The notes below the pieces were generated by a model that was given only the letters and a program-made list of their open reading frames with translations, was not told the origin of the DNA and searched no databases. From Longimicrobiales bacterium (lineage in GTDB: Bacteria; Gemmatimonadota; Gemmatimonadetes; Longimicrobiales; Gaopeijiaceae), in NCBI GenBank assembly GCA_965248195.1, contig CBDFIQ010000002.1, positions 2,144,001-2,208,000 of the forward strand: a stretch of DNA of 64,000 nt, given 5' to 3'. Shown here one piece after another: positions 52,425 to 60,682 of this stretch. Within the stretch, counting starts at the first letter, position 1, and every line of letters begins with the position of its first letter. A program made the position numbers and the translations under genes.

Positions 52425-55400
52425 TCAGTGATTCGTGCTCATGCTCCGGGCCGCGGGCACGGGTGGGGCCTGGGCCGGAACCGACACCTCCACGTGCCCG
52501 ACCTCTGCCCGCAGACGCCGGAGGTGGTAGCGCACCTCGGACATCGGGTCCGCCTCTCCAGGCACGTCTCGGGGGGCTACCTTCTGGAACTTGGGCAAGG
52601 CTTCCTCCCAGGCGCCGAGAAGCTCTTGGGCCCGCCTCGACCCCGTCCGCTCGTAATGACGCTCGATCATGGTCTTTAGCAACTCGATGTCGTCCGGATG
52701 CACCACGGCTTGCATTTCCACCAGGTCATGGTTCATGCGGGACGGGAGGTCACCGTATTCATCGAGCACGTATGCCATTCCATTCGACATGCCCGCCCCC
52801 AGATTTCGGCCTGTGTCACCGAGGATGACGACGGCCCCACCGGTCATGTATTCGCATCCGTGGTCTCCGACACCCTCCACAACCGCCCGGCCACCCGAGT
52901 TACGTACGGCGAACCGCTCCCCGGCGCCACCGGCGACGAACAGGTCACCGCCCGTCGCACCGTAGAGTACGGTATTCCCCACGAGCGTCGCTTTTTGCTC
53001 CAGGAATCGGGAGCCGGGCGGTGGGCAGACCGTGATTTCTCCCCCGCTCATCCCCTTCGCCACATAGTCGTTGGCCTCACCGATGAGGTTCAGGCACACT
53101 CCATTGGCGAGCCAGGCCCCGAACGACTGTCCCGCCGACCCCCGGAAGGCCAGGTCGATGGATCCTGGTGGCAGTCCGGCGTTCCCATGCACCTGAGCGA
53201 TGCGCCCCGAAATCCGGCCTCCCACCGTACGGTCCCGGTTCAGAATCTCATAGGAGCCCTGGAATGTGCCACCATCCTCGATGGCACTACCGATATCTTT
53301 CAGGATCCGGTCATCCATGGGACGGCCGGGCCGGTCGTTACGTTCCTGGACCACGTGGGCGGGTCCGCCCGACGTCCTCGCGATCATCTTGGAAAGGTCG
53401 ACGCCACGCCAACGGTCACCCTCCTCCGCCTCGATTTGTGTCAGCAGATCGGCCCTGCCGATCACGTCATCGAGCCGCTCATAACCGAGCGTGGCGAGGA
53501 TCTCCCGCACGTCCTCACCCACATGGGTGAGGAACTGGATCACCATCTCCGGCGTGCCGAAATACTTCTCCCTGTACTCTTCGGCCTGCGTCGCGATTCC
53601 CACGGGGCAGGTATTGAGGTGGCACTGGCGCGCCATCTTGCATCCGATCGCGATGAGTGCCGCGGTGCCGAAACCGTAGCGGTCGGCGCCGAGCAGGGCC
53701 GCAACCACGACGTCCCTCCCCGTATGCATGCCCCCGTCGGTACTGAGGATCACCCGGCCGCGAAGCCCATTCATCATGAGCGTCTGCTGAGTCTCCGCCA
53801 GCCCGAGCTCCCAGGGGATACCTGCGTACTTTATCGAGGTGAGCGGTGACGCACCGGTACCGCCGTCCGCCCCACTGATCTGGATGACGTCGGCATAGGC
53901 CTTGGCCACGCCCGCCGCAATCGTGCCTACCCCTTCCGAAGCCACCAACTTCACGATGACGCGGGCGGCCGGATTCACGACCTTGAGGTCGTAGATCAAC
54001 TGGGCGATGTCCTCGATCGAGTAGATGTCGTGGTGTGGCGGCGGAGAGATCAAGGGCGTGCCCGCGGTGACGTGCCGCAACTCGGCGATGTACGCCGAAA
54101 CCTTGTGGCCGGGAAGTTGTCCACCCTCCCCGGGTTTGGCACCCTGGGCGATCTTGATCTCCAGCTCCTTCGCCCCGACGAGGTACGCGGGCGTGACCCC
54201 GAACCGCCCGGAAGCGACCTGCTTCACCGACGAATTCGCATCGAGCTTATCACCACCCGGCGTGTAGCGGCGGGGATCCTCCCCACCCTCGCCGGTGTTG
54301 GCTAGACCGCCTAGCCGGTTCATCGCTCTCGCGAGATCCTCGTGAGCCTCTGGGCTCAGTGCACCCAACGACATAGCTCCGGTCTGGAATCGCCGTATTA
54401 TGGCCTCGACGGGTTCGACTTTATCGAGCCCGATCGGATCGCGGTCGGACGAGAGCTCGAGGAGATCCCGTAAGGCCGTAGGCGGACGGCTATGGACCAG
54501 GTCGCGGTAAGCCCGGTATTCTTCCTCGCCTCCGCCCTGGACTGTCTTGTGCAGAGCGCGCCAGACCTGTGGACTGTTCGCGTGGTAGTCGCCATCCCGC
54601 CGAAACTTGTACCAGCCGCCTCGCTCGAGCTTCTCCGCTGAGTACGCCTGGGTGTGCCGCTCAATCGCGTCCGCCGCGATGTGGCGGAAGCCGATACCGC
54701 CGATGCGTGACCTCGTGGTCGTGAAGCAGCGACGGAGGACCTCGTCACCCAGGCCGAGCGCCTCGAAAATCTGGGCGCCGTGGTAGGAAGAGACCGCGGA
54801 GATGCCCATTTTGGACATGACCTTGAGGATCCCCGCATCGGCCGCCTTCCTGTAGTTTCTGATGACTTCATCGAGTGCCTGGTCGTCGAACTCCCCTGCT
54901 CCGACCAACGCTCCCACGCTCTCGAAGGCGAGGTAGGGACAGATTGCCGAAGCCCCGAAACCGATCAGCGTAGCGAATTGGTGAACATCCCGAGCGTCCC
55001 CGGTGTCGGCGACGATGCTGGCCCTCATCCGGAGACCCTCGCGGATCAGGTGATTGTGCACCGTTGAAACCGCTAAGAGCATCGGAATCGGCGCACGGGC
55101 TTCATCGGTGGAGCGGTCGCTGACCACGAGCGCCTGGCACCCTTCGTCCACTGCGGCCACCGCAGCGGCGCAGAGGTCGTCGAGGGCCCCCTCGAGCCCT
55201 TCGGCACCGTCCTTCACGGGGAAACACGCCTCGAGTGTGGCAACGGAGAATCCCTCGGGCGTCCCTTCCCGAAGCTGCACCAACTCCCCCTCACTCATAA
55301 TCGGGCTCATGAGATGTACGAGCCGGGCAGCCTCTGGGTCCTCCTCCAAAATCGAATGGCGGCGGCCCAGGTAGGTATCGAGCGACATCACGATCTTCTC

Positions 55401-57056
55401 TCGAAGGGAGTCGATCGGTGGGTTGGTGACCTGTGCGAAGCGCTGCCGGAAATAGGTGTACAGGAGGCGGCCGGGTCCGTTCAGCGTGGACGGGGGCGTG
55501 TCGTCACCCATGGAGCCCGTGGGTTCCTTGCCGTCCCGTGCCATGGGTTTGAGGACGTATCCGATCTCCTCTTGAGTGTACCCGTGTAGCGCCTGCAAGC
55601 GAACCAGCTCGGCATCATCGGAATCGGGTCGATACCGCTTCGGGTCGAGCTCGAGGGGAGCGAGATGATGGAGATTTTCGCTCACCCACTGACCGTAAGG
55701 CCGCCGAGCCGCCATTTCGGCCTTGATTTCGTCGTTGTGCAAGAAGTGCCGCCGAGCCGTGTCGACGGCGATCATCTCACCGGGTCCGACCCTTCCCGAC
55801 TCCACGATCTCGCTCAGTGGCAGGTCAGCCAGCCCAACTTCCGAACTCATGATCACCACCCCGTCGGCCGTAACCTGATACCGGGCGGGGCGTAGGCCAT
55901 TACGGTCCATCACGGCGGCGGCAACCGTTCCGTCCGTGAAGGCGACCGCGGCTGGACCGTCCCAAGGCTCCGTGAGGCAGGCGTGATATTCGTAGAACTC
56001 CCGGAGTTGGGGATCCATGTTGGGCATGCTCTCCCACGCCTCCGGGATGAGCATCGCCATCGCGTGGAGCAGGCCGCGGCCAGAGGTCATCAGGAGTTCG
56101 AAAGCCTCGTCCAGGGAGGCCGTGTCAGACCCGATGGGATGGATGACCGGGATCAGATCCTCGAGCTGGTCGCCCCAAAAACTGGACGTGAGCTCGGGTT
56201 CGCGCGCCGACATCCAGTTCCGGTTGCCCAGGAGTGTGTTGATTTCTCCGTTGTGCGCGATCAAGCGGAACGGCTGGGCGAGGGGCCAGGTCGCAAGCGT
56301 ATTGGTGGCAAAACGCTGATGGAAAAGGGCGATCCCGGAAACCGTCCGTTCGTCCGCGAGGTCGGGAAAGAAGCGGGCGAGGTCTGTTGCGACCATGAGA
56401 CCCTTATAAACCACCGTCCGCGCGGACATCGACACGATGTAGCAATCGATGCCTTCTTCCCGGTAACCCGACTCGGCCCGCATCCGAGCGAGGTAGAGCG
56501 CCCGATCGAACTCGGGGCTCGACATGCCCGAGGGCCTCTCGATGAAGAGTTGCTCGATTCCCGGAAGAGATTGCAGGGCCGAGGCGCCAAGTACGGATCG
56601 GTCCGTCGGCACGACTCTCCAGCCAAGGGGCACGATGCCCGTCCGGTCCGCCGCCGCGTCCAGGATGGCACGCGCCCGGTCACGCATTTTCTTTTCTGTG
56701 GGCAAGAAGACCATCGCGAGGGCGAGCCCTGACAGGTCGCCCTCTTCCATACCCATGCCGGCGGCGTCTTCAGCCAACAACTCCTTCGGGACCTGAATCG
56801 TAACGCCCGCACCGTCACCCGAAGCCGCGTCGGCTGAGACCGCGCCCCGGTGCGTGAGGTTCGCGACCGAGCGCACCGCCAGCTCTACGATGCCATGGGT
56901 TCGCTCACCGTCGATCCTGGCTATGAAACCCGTCCCGCAGCCGTCGTGCTCGAAGGCCGGGTTATAAAGAGGCGGCGGGTTCGACGGAGACCAGGCGGCC
57001 CCGGACAGGGGCCCACCGTCCGGTATTCCGTGTCTAGAATCCAACTTCCGAGTCAT
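52425..57056 (-). CDS. gltB: Glutamate synthase large subunit
   Basis: EHDG-CGTGF (Ntn Cys1), HQRFATNT, HNGEINT, QGAKPGEGGQL, CKMARQCHLNTC 3Fe-4S motif, GXGXG domain. Confidence 0.97.
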   Translation of the reverse strand: MTRKLDSRHGIPDGGPLSGAAWSPSNPPPLYNPAFEHDGCGTGFIARIDGERTHGIVELAVRSVANLTHRGAVSADAASGDGAGVTIQVPKELLAEDAAGMGMEEGDLSGLALAMVFLPTEKKMRDRARAILDAAADRTGIVPLGWRVVPTDRSVLGASALQSLPGIEQLFIERPSGMSSPEFDRALYLARMRAESGYREEGIDCYIVSMSARTVVYKGLMVATDLARFFPDLADERTVSGIALFHQRFATNTLATWPLAQPFRLIAHNGEINTLLGNRNWMSAREPELTSSFWGDQLEDLIPVIHPIGSDTASLDEAFELLMTSGRGLLHAMAMLIPEAWESMPNMDPQLREFYEYHACLTEPWDGPAAVAFTDGTVAAAVMDRNGLRPARYQVTADGVVIMSSEVGLADLPLSEIVESGRVGPGEMIAVDTARRHFLHNDEIKAEMAARRPYGQWVSENLHHLAPLELDPKRYRPDSDDAELVRLQALHGYTQEEIGYVLKPMARDGKEPTGSMGDDTPPSTLNGPGRLLYTYFRQRFAQVTNPPIDSLREKIVMSLDTYLGRRHSILEEDPEAARLVHLMSPIMSEGELVQLREGTPEGFSVATLEACFPVKDGAEGLEGALDDLCAAAVAAVDEGCQALVVSDRSTDEARAPIPMLLAVSTVHNHLIREGLRMRASIVADTGDARDVHQFATLIGFGASAICPYLAFESVGALVGAGEFDDQALDEVIRNYRKAADAGILKVMSKMGISAVSSYHGAQIFEALGLGDEVLRRCFTTTRSRIGGIGFRHIAADAIERHTQAYSAEKLERGGWYKFRRDGDYHANSPQVWRALHKTVQGGGEEEYRAYRDLVHSRPPTALRDLLELSSDRDPIGLDKVEPVEAIIRRFQTGAMSLGALSPEAHEDLARAMNRLGGLANTGEGGEDPRRYTPGGDKLDANSSVKQVASGRFGVTPAYLVGAKELEIKIAQGAKPGEGGQLPGHKVSAYIAELRHVTAGTPLISPPPHHDIYSIEDIAQLIYDLKVVNPAARVIVKLVASEGVGTIAAGVAKAYADVIQISGADGGTGASPLTSIKYAGIPWELGLAETQQTLMMNGLRGRVILSTDGGMHTGRDVVVAALLGADRYGFGTAALIAIGCKMARQCHLNTCPVGIATQAEEYREKYFGTPEMVIQFLTHVGEDVREILATLGYERLDDVIGRADLLTQIEAEEGDRWRGVDLSKMIARTSGGPAHVVQERNDRPGRPMDDRILKDIGSAIEDGGTFQGSYEILNRDRTVGGRISGRIAQVHGNAGLPPGSIDLAFRGSAGQSFGAWLANGVCLNLIGEANDYVAKGMSGGEITVCPPPGSRFLEQKATLVGNTVLYGATGGDLFVAGGAGERFAVRNSGGRAVVEGVGDHGCEYMTGGAVVILGDTGRNLGAGMSNGMAYVLDEYGDLPSRMNHDLVEMQAVVHPDDIELLKTMIERHYERTGSRRAQELLGAWEEALPKFQKVAPRDVPGEADPMSEVRYHLRRLRAEVGHVEVSVPAQAPPVPAARSMSTNH

Positions 57057-57099
57057 ACGTCTCCCGATCTATTGCTCTATTCCCAAACGCTGTGTACCC

Positions 57100-57137
57100 A
57101 AACAAAAAACGGCCTTCCCACACTGGAGAAGGCCGTT
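57100..57137 (-). terminator. Intrinsic terminator inside the gltB 5' leader (attenuator)
   Basis: Minus strand AACGGCCTTCTCCA-GTG-TGGGAAGGCCGTT-TTTTGTTT, about 45 nt before the gltB ATG, same orientation as gltB. Confidence 0.85.
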
Positions 57138-57270
57138 CGAGGAACCGAAAATACTTGCTCAGTTCACCCGCATGCTTCCCCAACGCGGAGCCCTTTTCCG
57201 GCCTCGCTCAAGAGATTCGGGGCAAGTACGTACTCGCACGCGCGAGTTCGGTGAACGGCGAACGCTCATC
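57100..57270 (-). promoter_or_regulatory. Candidate riboswitch or attenuator leader of gltB
   Basis: Mutually exclusive helices: GUUCACC (57250-57256) with GGUGAAC (57162-57168), versus GCCGUUCACCGAA (57247-57259) pairing into the terminator 5' arm (57132-57149). Confidence 0.6.
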
Positions 57271-57465
57271 GGATTCTTACCTGAGGCGACCCAATTGCGA
57301 GGACCTACCAGGCACTTTCACTTGCTCCCCATGAGGGCACAGGGCCCCGAAAACTCTGTCCACACTTGCCGATCCCGCCTGCACCGGTGCACCAGCCGCA
57401 CCTGGGCGAGTTACGCGAGGTAACCGACGAGAATAGGACTTTCTTACCAGAACGGCAAGCGCTCC

Positions 57466-57494
57466 TTGCCCCCCCGTCCCCTCGCTCGTACAAT
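57466..57494 (+). promoter_or_regulatory. Sigma70-type promoter for the TAXI operon
   Basis: TTGCCC-17 bp-TACAAT. Confidence 0.6.
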
Positions 57495-57659
57495 TGCTGC
57501 CGTTCCTCGCGGTTCCAAAAGCCACCTCCCGTCTTCCGTCTTTGACAGCGATGCTTCCCGAAATCCAGTCGCTGTGGAGTTGACCGCCGTGCCCGATCCC
57601 AAATGGATGTACCAAGGGGATGCAGTACCAAGAAGTGCCTCTCAACAGCCTTCTAGAGG

Positions 57660-58661
57660 ATGATGATGACGCATAGGTGGGAAGGGACGTCATTCGTCCC
57701 GTCGATCCTTCTTCTTGCGGTCCTGACTTCATCCGGATGTGCCCCCGGGGACCGTCCTGACATCCTCTCGCTGGCAACGGCGGGCACCGGAGGTGTCTAC
57801 TACGTGCTGGGGGGATCGATCGCGGAGCTCTGGAGCCGCGAGTTGCCGGAGCATGATTTCGTAGCCGAGGTCACGGGCGGCTCAGTCGAGAATCTCAGCC
57901 TACTCCTGGGCGGTGATGTCCACGTGGCCTTCTCTATGGGTACGAACGCCCATGAGGTGTTCTACGCAAGGGGATCTTTTTCGGAGCGGGAGCCGGCGCG
58001 GGTTCTCGCTCTCACTGCGCTCTATCCGAACGTCCTTCACCTGGTCACCGTGGAAGGAACAGGAGTGGAGAGCCTCGTTGACCTCGTGGGGCGACGGGTC
58101 TCCGTAGGAGCGCCAGGGAGTGGGACCGAAGTGGCCGCCCGAACCCTGCTGGAAGGAAACGGGATCGGCTACGACGATTTCCGGCCCCAGCGTCTCAATT
58201 TCAACGAGACTGCTTCTGCGCTCCGGGACGGGAACATAGACGCCGGATTCTTGAGCGCCGGCACCCCTACCAGTGCCCTCATGGACCTGGCTACGGCGCG
58301 GACTATGCGACTCGTTGCGATCGGAGCGACGGAAGTGGAGAACACTGGGGTCTTGGACCCGACCGTGAGTCGCGATTTCTTCCTTCCAGGAACATACCCC
58401 GGCCAGGAAATCGAGGTGGAGACATTGAGTACACCCAACCTCCTCGTGGTCCGCGCCGACATGTCGGAGGAGCTCGTCTACGATCTGATTCAAGCGCTAT
58501 CCGCGGTACAGACGGAGTTAGCTGGCGTGCATCCTGCGGCGCGCCACATCTCGGCGGAGTACACCCTGGACGCTTCTCCCATCCCGCTCCACCCGGGTGC
58601 CGTTCGCTATTTCGTGGAAGCAGGATACGAGGTGCCCGAGCGTCTGATCTTTTCCCCGTGA
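57660..58661 (+). CDS. TAXI-family TRAP solute-binding lipoprotein
   Basis: Lipobox SSGC, ATAGTGGVYY, TGGSVEN, GAPGSGTE, IPLHPGAVRYF. Confidence 0.93.
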   Translation: MMMTHRWEGTSFVPSILLLAVLTSSGCAPGDRPDILSLATAGTGGVYYVLGGSIAELWSRELPEHDFVAEVTGGSVENLSLLLGGDVHVAFSMGTNAHEVFYARGSFSEREPARVLALTALYPNVLHLVTVEGTGVESLVDLVGRRVSVGAPGSGTEVAARTLLEGNGIGYDDFRPQRLNFNETASALRDGNIDAGFLSAGTPTSALMDLATARTMRLVAIGATEVENTGVLDPTVSRDFFLPGTYPGQEIEVETLSTPNLLVVRADMSEELVYDLIQALSAVQTELAGVHPAARHISAEYTLDASPIPLHPGAVRYFVEAGYEVPERLIFSP

Positions 58662-58693
58662 GACATCCCGATATCCGCGTCGGTGGATAACCG

Positions 58694-60682
58694 GTGAGTT
58701 CCGCTGGTGAGCCCTCGATCCCGAGGAGGGACCTGGGTCTCCCAACCTTTTCCGCAGCGACCTTCGTCGTTCTTGCGATCGCCCTCTCGCTCTTCCAGCT
58801 CTACTTATCGGGCGTCCGGCCGATCGGACTCTTCTACGAGAGAGCGTTCCATCTGGCGGTCATTCAGGTCTTGGCCTTTCTCCTCTTTCCGACGAAGGGT
58901 CGCGAAACGTCCGGGGTTCGAAGTGGATTGGCATGGACGGTTGACGCCACTCTCATCGCTGGCTCCATCTTCGCGGCCCTCTACCTCACGCTCAATCTAG
59001 ACGCCATCGTGAATCGGGCAGGGGCCTGGGAGGGCGCCGACGTTTTCGCGGGCGGAGTGGCAGTGGTCACGCTCCTCGAAGCGTGCCGAAGGGCGTTGGG
59101 GTGGCCTATTTCGTTCATCGCCGTCTGTTTCATCGGCTACGGGTATGCGGGTCCCGCACTCCCCGGCCTGCTTCGGCATGGAGGCTACAGCACCGGACGG
59201 CTCGTGGGACAGCTTTATTTGGGCCAGGAGGGGATTTACGGGATCCCGTTGGGCGTAGCCGCCTCCTTCGTCTTCATCTTCATCTTGTTCGGAGCCCTGC
59301 TGGAGGTCACCGGCGCGGGCCAGTTTTTCATCGACCTGGCGTACGCGGTTACCGGAAGACAGCGCGGAGGACCCGCAAAGGCGGCCGTTCTGGCCTCTGC
59401 CGCGATGGGGTCCGTGTCTGGGAGTGCCATCGCCAACGTCGTAACCAGCGGGGCGTTCACCATTCCCCTCATGAAAAAGGTCGGATACCGTGCTGAGGAG
59501 GCCGGCGGTATCGAGGCGGCCGCAAGTACCGGGGGTCAAATCCTTCCCCCGATCATGGGGGCCGGAGCGTTTCTGATCGCCGAATATACCGGGCTGCCTT
59601 ATCTGGAGGTCGTCAAGGCGGGCCTCGTTCCCGCGATTCTATACATGGGAACCGTTTTCGTCTTCGTGCACCTCGTGGCGGTCGCGAGAGATCTCAAGGG
59701 CCTTCCAGCCTCCGAGCTTCCCCAGTTCGGGACGACGTTGGCCAAGGGCTGGCACTTCCTCGCAGCCCTAGTGGTCCTGATGGCCGCGCTCCTCATGGAT
59801 TTTTCGGTGGCCCGGGTCGGATTCTTTTCGTGCGTAGCGGTGGTGGCACTGGCGGCCTTGCGAGCCGCGTGGGACCGGACCCTACCCGGGAATCAAGTGG
59901 GCTCGAGGCCGGGAGAAGGGCTTCCGGGACCCTTCGCTGGCTGGGTCGGCGGCGGGATTGCACGCATTGTGGATGGGTTCGTCGTTGCGTGCCGAAACGC
60001 ACTTCCAGTGAGTCTGGCCTGCGCCGTGGCGGGAATCATCGTGGGCATCGTCGGCCTCACGGGTCTGGGCCTCAAATTTTCGGCCCTCATGCTTTCTCTT
60101 TCCCAGGGGAATCTCTTTCTTGCCCTGATACTCCTGCTTCTGGCAAGTCTCGTGCTTGGGATGGGACTTCCCGTAACCGCCAGTTACGTCGTCCTTATCG
60201 TCCTCGCCGGCCCGGTACTGATCAATGATTTCGGTCTTCCTGTCCTGATCGCTCACCTGCTCGTGTTCTGGTACTCCCAGGACTCCAACGTCACACCCCC
60301 CGTCTGCCTCGCTGCTTACGCAGCCGCGGGTGTCGCCGGATCCGACCCCATGCGCACCGGGCTCCAGGCATGGAAGTACGCCAAGGGACTTTATCTCATA
60401 CCGCTCCTCATGGTGGTGCATCCCGAGCTCGCCTTAGGGGGTGCGTGGCCGGTAGTGCTCGGGAAGGCGACGATGTCGATGGTGGCGTTAGCCGCGTTCG
60501 CCGCTGCGCTGGAGGGACACTCGCTGAAGCGTCTCACCGTAGGAGGTCGGATCCTGCTTCTGGTAGGCGCCTCCACCGCGTTTTTTCCGTCCTTCCTGGT
60601 GGGCGGTCTGGGAGCCCTAGGCGTCGTCGCCTACACCCTGAAGGACATCCGAAAACCGGATCACCCCGCGCCTTTTCACTGA
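58694..60682 (+). CDS. TAXI-TRAP fused 4TM/12TM permease
   Basis: GGPAKAAV, SGSAIANVV, EAAASTGGQILPPIMGAGAF, LGMGLPVTASY, VTPPVCLAAY. Confidence 0.94.
   Translation: MSSAGEPSIPRRDLGLPTFSAATFVVLAIALSLFQLYLSGVRPIGLFYERAFHLAVIQVLAFLLFPTKGRETSGVRSGLAWTVDATLIAGSIFAALYLTLNLDAIVNRAGAWEGADVFAGGVAVVTLLEACRRALGWPISFIAVCFIGYGYAGPALPGLLRHGGYSTGRLVGQLYLGQEGIYGIPLGVAASFVFIFILFGALLEVTGAGQFFIDLAYAVTGRQRGGPAKAAVLASAAMGSVSGSAIANVVTSGAFTIPLMKKVGYRAEEAGGIEAAASTGGQILPPIMGAGAFLIAEYTGLPYLEVVKAGLVPAILYMGTVFVFVHLVAVARDLKGLPASELPQFGTTLAKGWHFLAALVVLMAALLMDFSVARVGFFSCVAVVALAALRAAWDRTLPGNQVGSRPGEGLPGPFAGWVGGGIARIVDGFVVACRNALPVSLACAVAGIIVGIVGLTGLGLKFSALMLSLSQGNLFLALILLLLASLVLGMGLPVTASYVVLIVLAGPVLINDFGLPVLIAHLLVFWYSQDSNVTPPVCLAAYAAAGVAGSDPMRTGLQAWKYAKGLYLIPLLMVVHPELALGGAWPVVLGKATMSMVALAAFAAALEGHSLKRLTVGGRILLLVGASTAFFPSFLVGGLGALGVVAYTLKDIRKPDHPAPFH

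Follow-up and report, generated by a model that had tools for sequence, protein, structure and literature searches.

High-affinity assimilation of ammonium has its entry step at glutamate synthase. The known RNA-level controls of this enzyme are the ppGpp and glutamine riboswitches, and the ppGpp riboswitch acts by means of an intrinsic terminator (PMC6003355 and PMC8632094, as excerpted). The classical attenuator pattern is defined in PMC1183508. The leader of gltB described here resembles E. coli trpL and hisL in having a short ORF, mutually exclusive 1:2, 2:3 and 3:4 hairpins and an intrinsic terminator, with a stop codon so positioned that a finished ribosome would block 2:3, according to the definition in the excerpt of that paper. 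No printed leader-peptide attenuator for gltB was found in a literature that was thinly covered for subscription journals and that excluded supplements (e.g. that of PMC8632094), and the excerpts of PMC4833913 and PMC13236596 described no gltB leader.

The window is a 64,000-nt stretch of DNA from a marine bacterium of the order Longimicrobiales. The gltB leader in it is most likely a conserved early-stop switch, predicted to be flipped by ribosomes on two tiny upstream ORFs, and not a metabolite-binding RNA. We put the probability that it is a ribosome-mediated transcription attenuator at roughly 0.72. A sequence-only reading of the window had raised both possibilities, a new riboswitch or an attenuator. 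Its proposal of a conserved transcription attenuator for gltB was supported by the analysis.

The gltB gene (52425..57056, minus strand, starting at 57056) encodes a glutamate synthase large subunit of 1543 aa (NF008730, 1814 bits), and the closest named GltB records were from Gemmatimonadota, order Longimicrobiales. No gltD adjoined it, and no TIGR01317 match exceeded the cut-off in the whole genome (92% complete). The enzyme may be ferredoxin-dependent. Cytochrome c maturation genes directly follow gltB. The upstream neighbour is a divergent TAXI-family TRAP transporter (57660-60682, plus strand), consisting of a solute-binding protein and a fused permease, and the leader is therefore expected to have its own promoter. 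Glutamate or 2-oxoglutarate is the ligand of some TAXI proteins.

The leader probably extends over about 370 nt, compared with 170 nt in the sequence-only reading, which had started the element at 57270. In the alignment of 28 loci, conservation spanned the region from two promoter-like hexamers (57458-57430) to the U tract, and faded above the hexamers and below the U tract. About 300 nt of the leader was conserved. The hexamers (57458-57453 and 57435-57430, separated by a 17-nt spacer) form a putative sigma-70-type promoter (57430..57458, minus strand) that was conserved in the 28 loci; with 8 of 12 hexamer matches it lay below the threshold of the promoter scanner and was absent from its output. 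The transcription start was guessed to be near 57423. The 45-100 nt between the terminator and the gltB ATG was poorly conserved, which made a conserved promoter in this interval a disfavored, if possible, arrangement. The RNAalifold consensus placed a 5' hairpin at 57364..57412 (minus strand), which varied in sequence and length and in which the insertions of L014, L061 and L068 were aligned. It is possibly a pause or stabilizing element.

The leader was present in 9 of the 12 genomes of one Longimicrobiales genus, including all six that were at least 90% complete. There was one copy per genome, and no second copy was found in the genome of the window. Nineteen metagenome contigs, selected for an exact pattern, and eight related genomes, found through the GltB protein, brought the collection to 28 loci (27 distinct) with a mean identity of 85%. 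GltB was encoded downstream in 26 of the 28, and the remaining two contigs ended too early. Two types of GltB were found behind the same leader, being 75-88% and 42-45% identical to that of the window. The latter type occurred in L018, L019, L058, L060, L064, L065, L067 and L069, where the coding region looks to have been replaced and the leader retained.

No homologue was found beyond the genus. A DNA search of 401 genomes of the phylum gave two strong matches, and a sequence-only model gave four in 151 genomes of the family; all of these were within the genus. Contigs of metatranscriptomes covered leaders of relatives in four of four RNA runs from two studies, giving no strand, ends or level and possibly representing DNA. 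Among these contigs, which may likewise be DNA and were given no weight as evidence, two bridged the terminator and one ended at 57098, at the U tract.

The sequence-only reading had placed a strong terminator about 45 nt before gltB. It was found there, as a hairpin at 57138-57107 (3:4; 57100..57138 with the U tract, minus strand) of -21.3 kcal/mol (z -5.1), with its 3' end ~45-50 nt before the ATG. None of 200 shuffles was as good. In all 27 distinct copies the terminator had an energy of -15 to -23 kcal/mol, and it was 98.6% paired in 24 homologues; pairs here and below were counted in 24 distinct sequences (alignment A2).

Two further hairpins, missing from the sequence-only reading, completed the set. 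The protector (1:2; 57177..57215, minus strand) joins segment 1 (57215-57200) to segment 2 (57192-57177) with -17.1 kcal/mol (z -1.5) in the window and -14 to -19 kcal/mol in the 27 copies. It was 96.2% paired, with no double-sided changes. In the antiterminator (2:3; 57120..57186, minus strand), 57186-57177 pairs with 57129-57120 around an inner hairpin, H6 (57170-57138). The energy was -33.0 kcal/mol in the window (z -4.05; 0 of 200 shuffles as good) and -23 to -34 kcal/mol in the 27 copies. Its outer helix was 94.2% paired, compared with 40-66% when slid, also with no double-sided changes, and H6 was 99.0% paired. The partner strand 57129-57120 takes in the terminator loop and the upper part of its 5' arm. 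The folding model thus has as the main antiterminator a hairpin that runs from the 3' end of the upstream ORF to the upper arm and loop of the terminator. The terminator loop keeps its complementarity to segment 2, while such loops are normally free to vary.

Protector, H6 and terminator together had an energy of -50.7 kcal/mol in the window (z -3.4). The OFF fold was 97.6% paired across the homologues, while slid controls of the OFF fold and of the antiterminator outer helix gave 36-66%. The invariant blocks are explained by their double use in the protector, antiterminator and terminator helices. Comparison with the leaders of relatives, which the sequence-only reading had proposed as a check, thus gave conservation within the genus, but no compensatory covariation: none was detected in the 49 pairs of the OFF state or the 10 pairs of the antiterminator, and shuffle controls matched covariation as high in 142 of 500 (OFF state) and 500 of 500 (antiterminator) cases. 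The lack of support from covariation was due to the copies being too alike (~85%).

Two exclusive folds had been proposed in the sequence-only reading. In Fold A, the P1 helix and the small hairpin it encloses were 94% paired, but the inner arm was only 77/76% paired: of the 24 sequences, 23 break one of its pairs and 21 break another. Folded by itself, the region of Fold A (57262-57155) was no better than shuffles (z -1.1). Fold B (57132..57259, minus strand; 57259-57247 with 57149-57132, plus 57228-57222 with 57158-57152) was the minimum-energy fold of 57262-57125, and its pairing was conserved: the three helices were 95.8, 93.5 and 85.7% paired in the 24 distinct homologues (91.5% overall). 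One pair of the third helix had double changes in six sequences, not beyond shuffles. Fold B was not the main antiterminator as had been proposed, but it may be a second, weaker one.

Hairpin H3 (57252..57268, minus strand) masks both the 5' strand of Fold B and the second upstream ORF's start codon. It was paired in 99.3% of cells, and five of its six pairs never varied. A 6-nt deletion in L018 and L067 eliminates it. The small hairpin H4 (57232..57247, minus strand; 94% paired), which the sequence-only reading had drawn, was broken in L012 and duplicated in L061, L071 and L072. The duplication, of 18 nt and in frame, copies this near-palindromic hairpin.

The leader contains two short ORFs. 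uORF1 (57277..57321, minus strand) has a GTG start, 14 codons, a stop at 57279-57277 and a GGAG-type ribosome site at 57330-57325. It was open and equally long in all 28 loci, always ended in TAA or TAG, and stopped 6-7 nt before the ATG of uORF2 (7 nt in the window). We infer that uORF1 is translated. A shorter ORF overlapping the uORF1 start was rejected, as its start codon was not kept in all copies.

uORF2 (57159..57269, minus strand) is the 36-codon ORF of the sequence-only reading, present as described, and has 32-42 codons in homologues. Its ribosome site is weak. It stops at either member of a pair of TGA codons (57166-57164 and 57161-57159) spaced by 5 nt, and was open in all 27 distinct copies despite frame-changing indels. 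Fifteen internal stop triplets were found, none in frame. The distance from the ATG to the first TGA took seven values, and the third frame was never used. The chance of such open frames was ~0.002, by a hand count, made after the fact on related copies, of ~8 indel classes and 8 stop events. The sensing window in the middle of uORF2 was read in three frames (15, 11 and 1 copies).

The peptides themselves were not conserved in this way. The pN/pS ratio was 0.77 for uORF1, the peptide of which appears to be under little or no selection, and on this ground a role for it as an arrest peptide was discarded. For codons 2-12 of uORF2 (25 copies) it was 1.0, and frame shifts followed further on. A conserved nascent peptide of the TnaC type was therefore absent from both. 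The description of uORF2 as Arg-rich did not hold up either, since Arg codons among the related leaders numbered 39 against an expected 31.9, which was not significant.

Outside the genus, 16 weak model loci were rejected as homologues, all lying in stop-free frames of 138-698 codons. Five of the weak hits (L209, L212, L220, L221 and L222) contained a conserved coding stretch that matched the window at 57225-57195, in the middle of uORF2, in up to 25 of 26 bases, in a gene that we take to be sufD/sufB. The stretch is read in the frame that 11 leader copies use. The resemblance is probably due to chance; derivation of the middle of uORF2 from a coding fragment is possible.

The effect of ribosome position was computed at equilibrium, with the ribosome taken to cover the RNA as far as 15 nt beyond the first base in the P site and with the RNA upstream of it left out. 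The cost of freeing the 5' arm of the terminator, taken just before the 3' arm is made, had a median of 6.7-8.7 kcal/mol in the 27 copies with no ribosome, and 5.9-8.8 kcal/mol with a ribosome upstream of segment 1. A ribosome over segment 1 raised it to 8.2-13.2 kcal/mol, and one near the stop lowered it to 0.8-3.4 kcal/mol. The raised barrier with the ribosome over segment 1 held at the group level. At some stall position over segment 1 the terminator fell below 0.5 at equilibrium in 14 of the 27 copies; the other 13 did not flip, and for these a kinetic argument is needed. Outside this range, it fell below 0.5 in at most one of 27 copies at any position. When no ribosome was present, the terminator was the favored structure at equilibrium in all but one of the 27 full leaders. 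The computation thus gave both classical responses, a stall over segment 1 favoring 2:3 and a ribosome at the stop blocking it.

In the same scan, a ribosome at the end of uORF1 opened H3 and permitted Fold B. The effect was small, with a median cost of 7.3-8.8 kcal/mol compared with ~6-7 beside it, and the terminator below 0.5 in no more than one of 27 copies.

The proposed mechanism runs as follows. RNA polymerase would start near 57423, and ribosomes would load on uORF1. Stopping at the end of uORF1, 7 nt from the uORF2 AUG that H3 masks, they would be passed on by translational coupling as that hairpin is opened. A ribosome that reaches either TGA would, in the computed structure, cover segment 2, so that the terminator forms and gltB is off. 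One delayed at about codons 14-25 is predicted to cover segment 1 only. Segment 2, left free, would then pair with the terminator's loop and upper arm while its 3' arm has yet to be made, leaving gltB on. With no ribosome, protector and terminator are predicted to form, and gltB would be off.

Related leaders were used to examine the arrangement beyond the genus. Sixty-two gltB upstream regions were scored (64 were given, two had no match, some were duplicates, and the unpublished G429 was left out). The terminator-bearing set (n = 22) was made up of 20 that passed the filter and three taken by eye, minus the second member of the genus of the window. An ORF of 20-40 codons with its stop 20-40 nt before the terminator was found in 20 of these 22 Gemmatimonadota leaders (2.6 expected from shuffles), and in 11 of 13 sequence clusters (1.6 expected), with the test windows having been set after the antiterminator positions were viewed and the arm of L154 redefined before the test. 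The best antiterminator of most of these leaders had its start within the final codons of the ORF, some 45-60 nt above the terminator. The geometry of ORF plus antiterminator was thus kept in relatives with unrelated sequence. This supported ribosome-mediated attenuation, which the sequence-only reading had named as the alternative to a riboswitch, and spoke for translation of uORF2 more strongly than did the open frames within the genus.

The genus g45 (L083, L154) has two uORFs and a junction like that of the window, and both members retain the two uORFs and the terminator. In L085, which is g45-like, the terminator region is missing upstream of position 1501 and uORF1 runs in frame into gltB, so that the attenuator appears to have been lost. 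Another Longimicrobiales family (L016, L163, L164, L166, L170, L174 and L177) has gltB attenuators of a second family, in which the ORF has a GTG start, opens with Met-Asn-Thr and keeps a Lys-Pro core, and the antiterminator is clear. They would be a better subject for a codon test than the window. Within the genome of the window, a genome-wide scan with a strict filter found 11 terminator-bearing leaders and no second cassette of this kind among them.

The signal was sought in the codons. Asn codons were enriched in the related ORFs (29 compared with 10.3 expected in all 20; 16 compared with 4.8 in 11 cluster representatives, of which a shorter start of L179, judged by eye, would take away three). 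Lys codons were less enriched (8 compared with 5.1 in the representatives; 25 compared with 11.4 in all 20). Gln and Glu codons were not enriched in the representatives (1 compared with 7.5, and 4 compared with 7.6, respectively). In the genus itself the codon pattern was weaker: the predicted sensing window contained, by eye, an Asn or Lys codon in all 27 copies and a Glu codon in 26. There were only one to three candidate codons in each, which would make for a shallow switch; in the excerpt of PMC1183508, few regulatory codons go with low sensitivity. No tandem run of regulatory codons was found in segment 1 of the 27 copies. Codon 8, where Asn is encoded most often (18 of 25 copies), falls upstream of the predicted sensing window.

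We tentatively favor a shortage of Asn- or Lys-tRNA as the signal. A general slowing of translation under nitrogen shortage is almost as probable, Glu-tRNA is rather doubtful, and some other signal is unlikely. AsnB draws on Gln for the synthesis of Asn. The supply of Asn thus depends on Gln through asnB-type genes, making Asn-tRNA a plausible gauge of nitrogen. The genome encodes asnS, glnS, gatB and two asnB-type genes, and gave no match to asnA. The indirect Asn-tRNA route as the sole source of Asn was not supported, as asnS and the two asnB-type genes are present alongside glnS and gatB.

A more elaborate version of the attenuator may be conceived, in which a ribosome lingering at the uORF1 stop would open H3 and give Fold B as a first ON route, slowing in uORF2 at single Asn/Lys codons would give 2:3 as a second, and the double stop would tolerate frameshift indels. 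The leader would then be a two-stage, frame-indifferent device, the most elaborate in a phylum-wide and so far undescribed family of attenuators before gltB, which sense nitrogen status through the supply of Asn/Lys-tRNA and not through Glu or Gln. Taken as a whole, this version is speculative and we consider it improbable.

A new metabolite-binding riboswitch (for Gln, Glu, 2-oxoglutarate or ppGpp) would use a 5' domain as its aptamer and 1:2/2:3/3:4 as its expression platform. The domain would be closed by two conserved long-range helices, 57350-57344/57223-57217, the second strongest conserved helix of the leader, and 57325-57319/57228-57222. These have no place in the attenuator model, and once ~200 nt is made both could, in the folds, bury the uORF1 start codon. 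The conserved length is also far beyond the need of a bare attenuator, the blocks stay invariant though the uORF2 peptide switches frame, and ppGpp and glutamine riboswitches precede glutamate synthase genes elsewhere (excerpts of PMC6003355 and PMC8632094). On the other hand, the aptamer arm proposed in the sequence-only reading was broken in relatives, the sequence was confined to one genus, and the ORF geometry was kept in relatives of unrelated sequence. Frame-preserving indels are not needed by a riboswitch.

Rfam gave no support to a riboswitch either, even at E 5-10. At gathering score, the whole window contained one tRNA and nothing at the leader. A search of 56800-57800 with 4227 families at E 10 gave three matches at chance level, and one at E 5 on 17 loci, of which 16 are copies of the leader, gave nothing relevant. 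The partial likeness to the glnA glutamine aptamer was not borne out, as RF01739 had no match in the genome at E 1 with a positive control, and none on the leader loci at a loose E. The stated absence of T-box and ykkC cores agreed with the covariance models: T-box RF00230 had no match in the genome (control positive) and none at a loose E on the leader loci, and the ykkC-type (guanidine, ppGpp, PRPP) and glycine riboswitch models had none in the E 10 search of 56800-57800 or in the E 5 search of the 17 loci. Likenesses seen by eye to the consensus of the glycine, T-box or cobalamin riboswitch or of RNase P were dropped for lack of a model match. We consider a riboswitch unlikely.

A protein or small RNA that tips protector against antiterminator in the manner of PyrR or ANTAR, with the uORFs incidental, is also unlikely. 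The genome encodes a PyrR-family protein, and the best Rfam match, a non-significant one, was to PyrR (RF00515): it spanned 57217-57102 and scored 19.4 bits at E 6, where the gathering score is 54. However, this match omits the binding-loop segment and rests on the shape of the terminator, each genome has a single copy of the leader and no regulon, and the ORF geometry in 11 of 13 clusters would be unexplained. A search for the ANTAR domain PF03861 gave no match in the genome, and the control genomes were likewise silent.

Least probable is a leaky terminator of fixed strength, with no conditional switch, which would dampen gltB and set free a conserved small RNA or peptide that has a task of its own. 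This would suit the preference of ribosome-free leaders for the terminator, the conservation of the 5' half beyond the need of a switch, and the trpL attenuator RNA that works in trans after release in Sinorhizobium (as excerpted), but would make the conserved antiterminator that constrains the terminator loop purposeless, and neither uORF peptide was clearly selected.

If the ribosome-mediated reading is right, Gemmatimonadota couple nitrogen assimilation to the speed of ribosomes, probably at Asn/Lys codons, and the genus shows that such a switch can persist while the frame of its peptide changes.

The mechanism class is that of the textbooks. An ORF ended just before the intrinsic terminator in all 27 distinct copies. 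Unlike trpL and hisL, the gltB leader has no run of end-product codons, and the frame of its sensing window varies between close relatives. It also differs in having two alternative stops, an extra ORF upstream and a nitrogen-assimilation enzyme as its target. We did not file it as a plain member of the trpL/hisL class because a conserved run of cognate codons is absent.

The ppGpp riboswitch (ykkC subtype 2a), the glnA glutamine riboswitch and the Negativicutes gltD motif likewise precede glutamate synthase genes, according to the excerpts of PMC6003355 and PMC8632094. These RNAs belong to other phyla, and the gltB leader had no covariance-model match in any Rfam family. The gltD motif acts at the ribosome site.

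In E. coli pyrBI, as predicted for the gltB leader, the peptide sequence is irrelevant, and what counts is where the ribosome stands with respect to the terminator (excerpt of PMC3641672). On the other hand, pyrBI responds to UTP, by way of pauses of the polymerase in a U-rich stretch, while the gltB leader has no U-rich run before the terminator and has a pair of protector and antiterminator hairpins.

Salmonella mgtCBR, with the tandem attenuators mgtM and mgtP, also has two short ORFs in a long leader, and either of them can alter the fold. An intrinsic terminator is lacking there, and the ORFs respond to ATP and Pro-tRNA independently of each other (both from the excerpt of PMC3641672). 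In the gltB leader, on the other hand, both ORFs would serve one intrinsic terminator, and the 7 nt between them suggests translational coupling.
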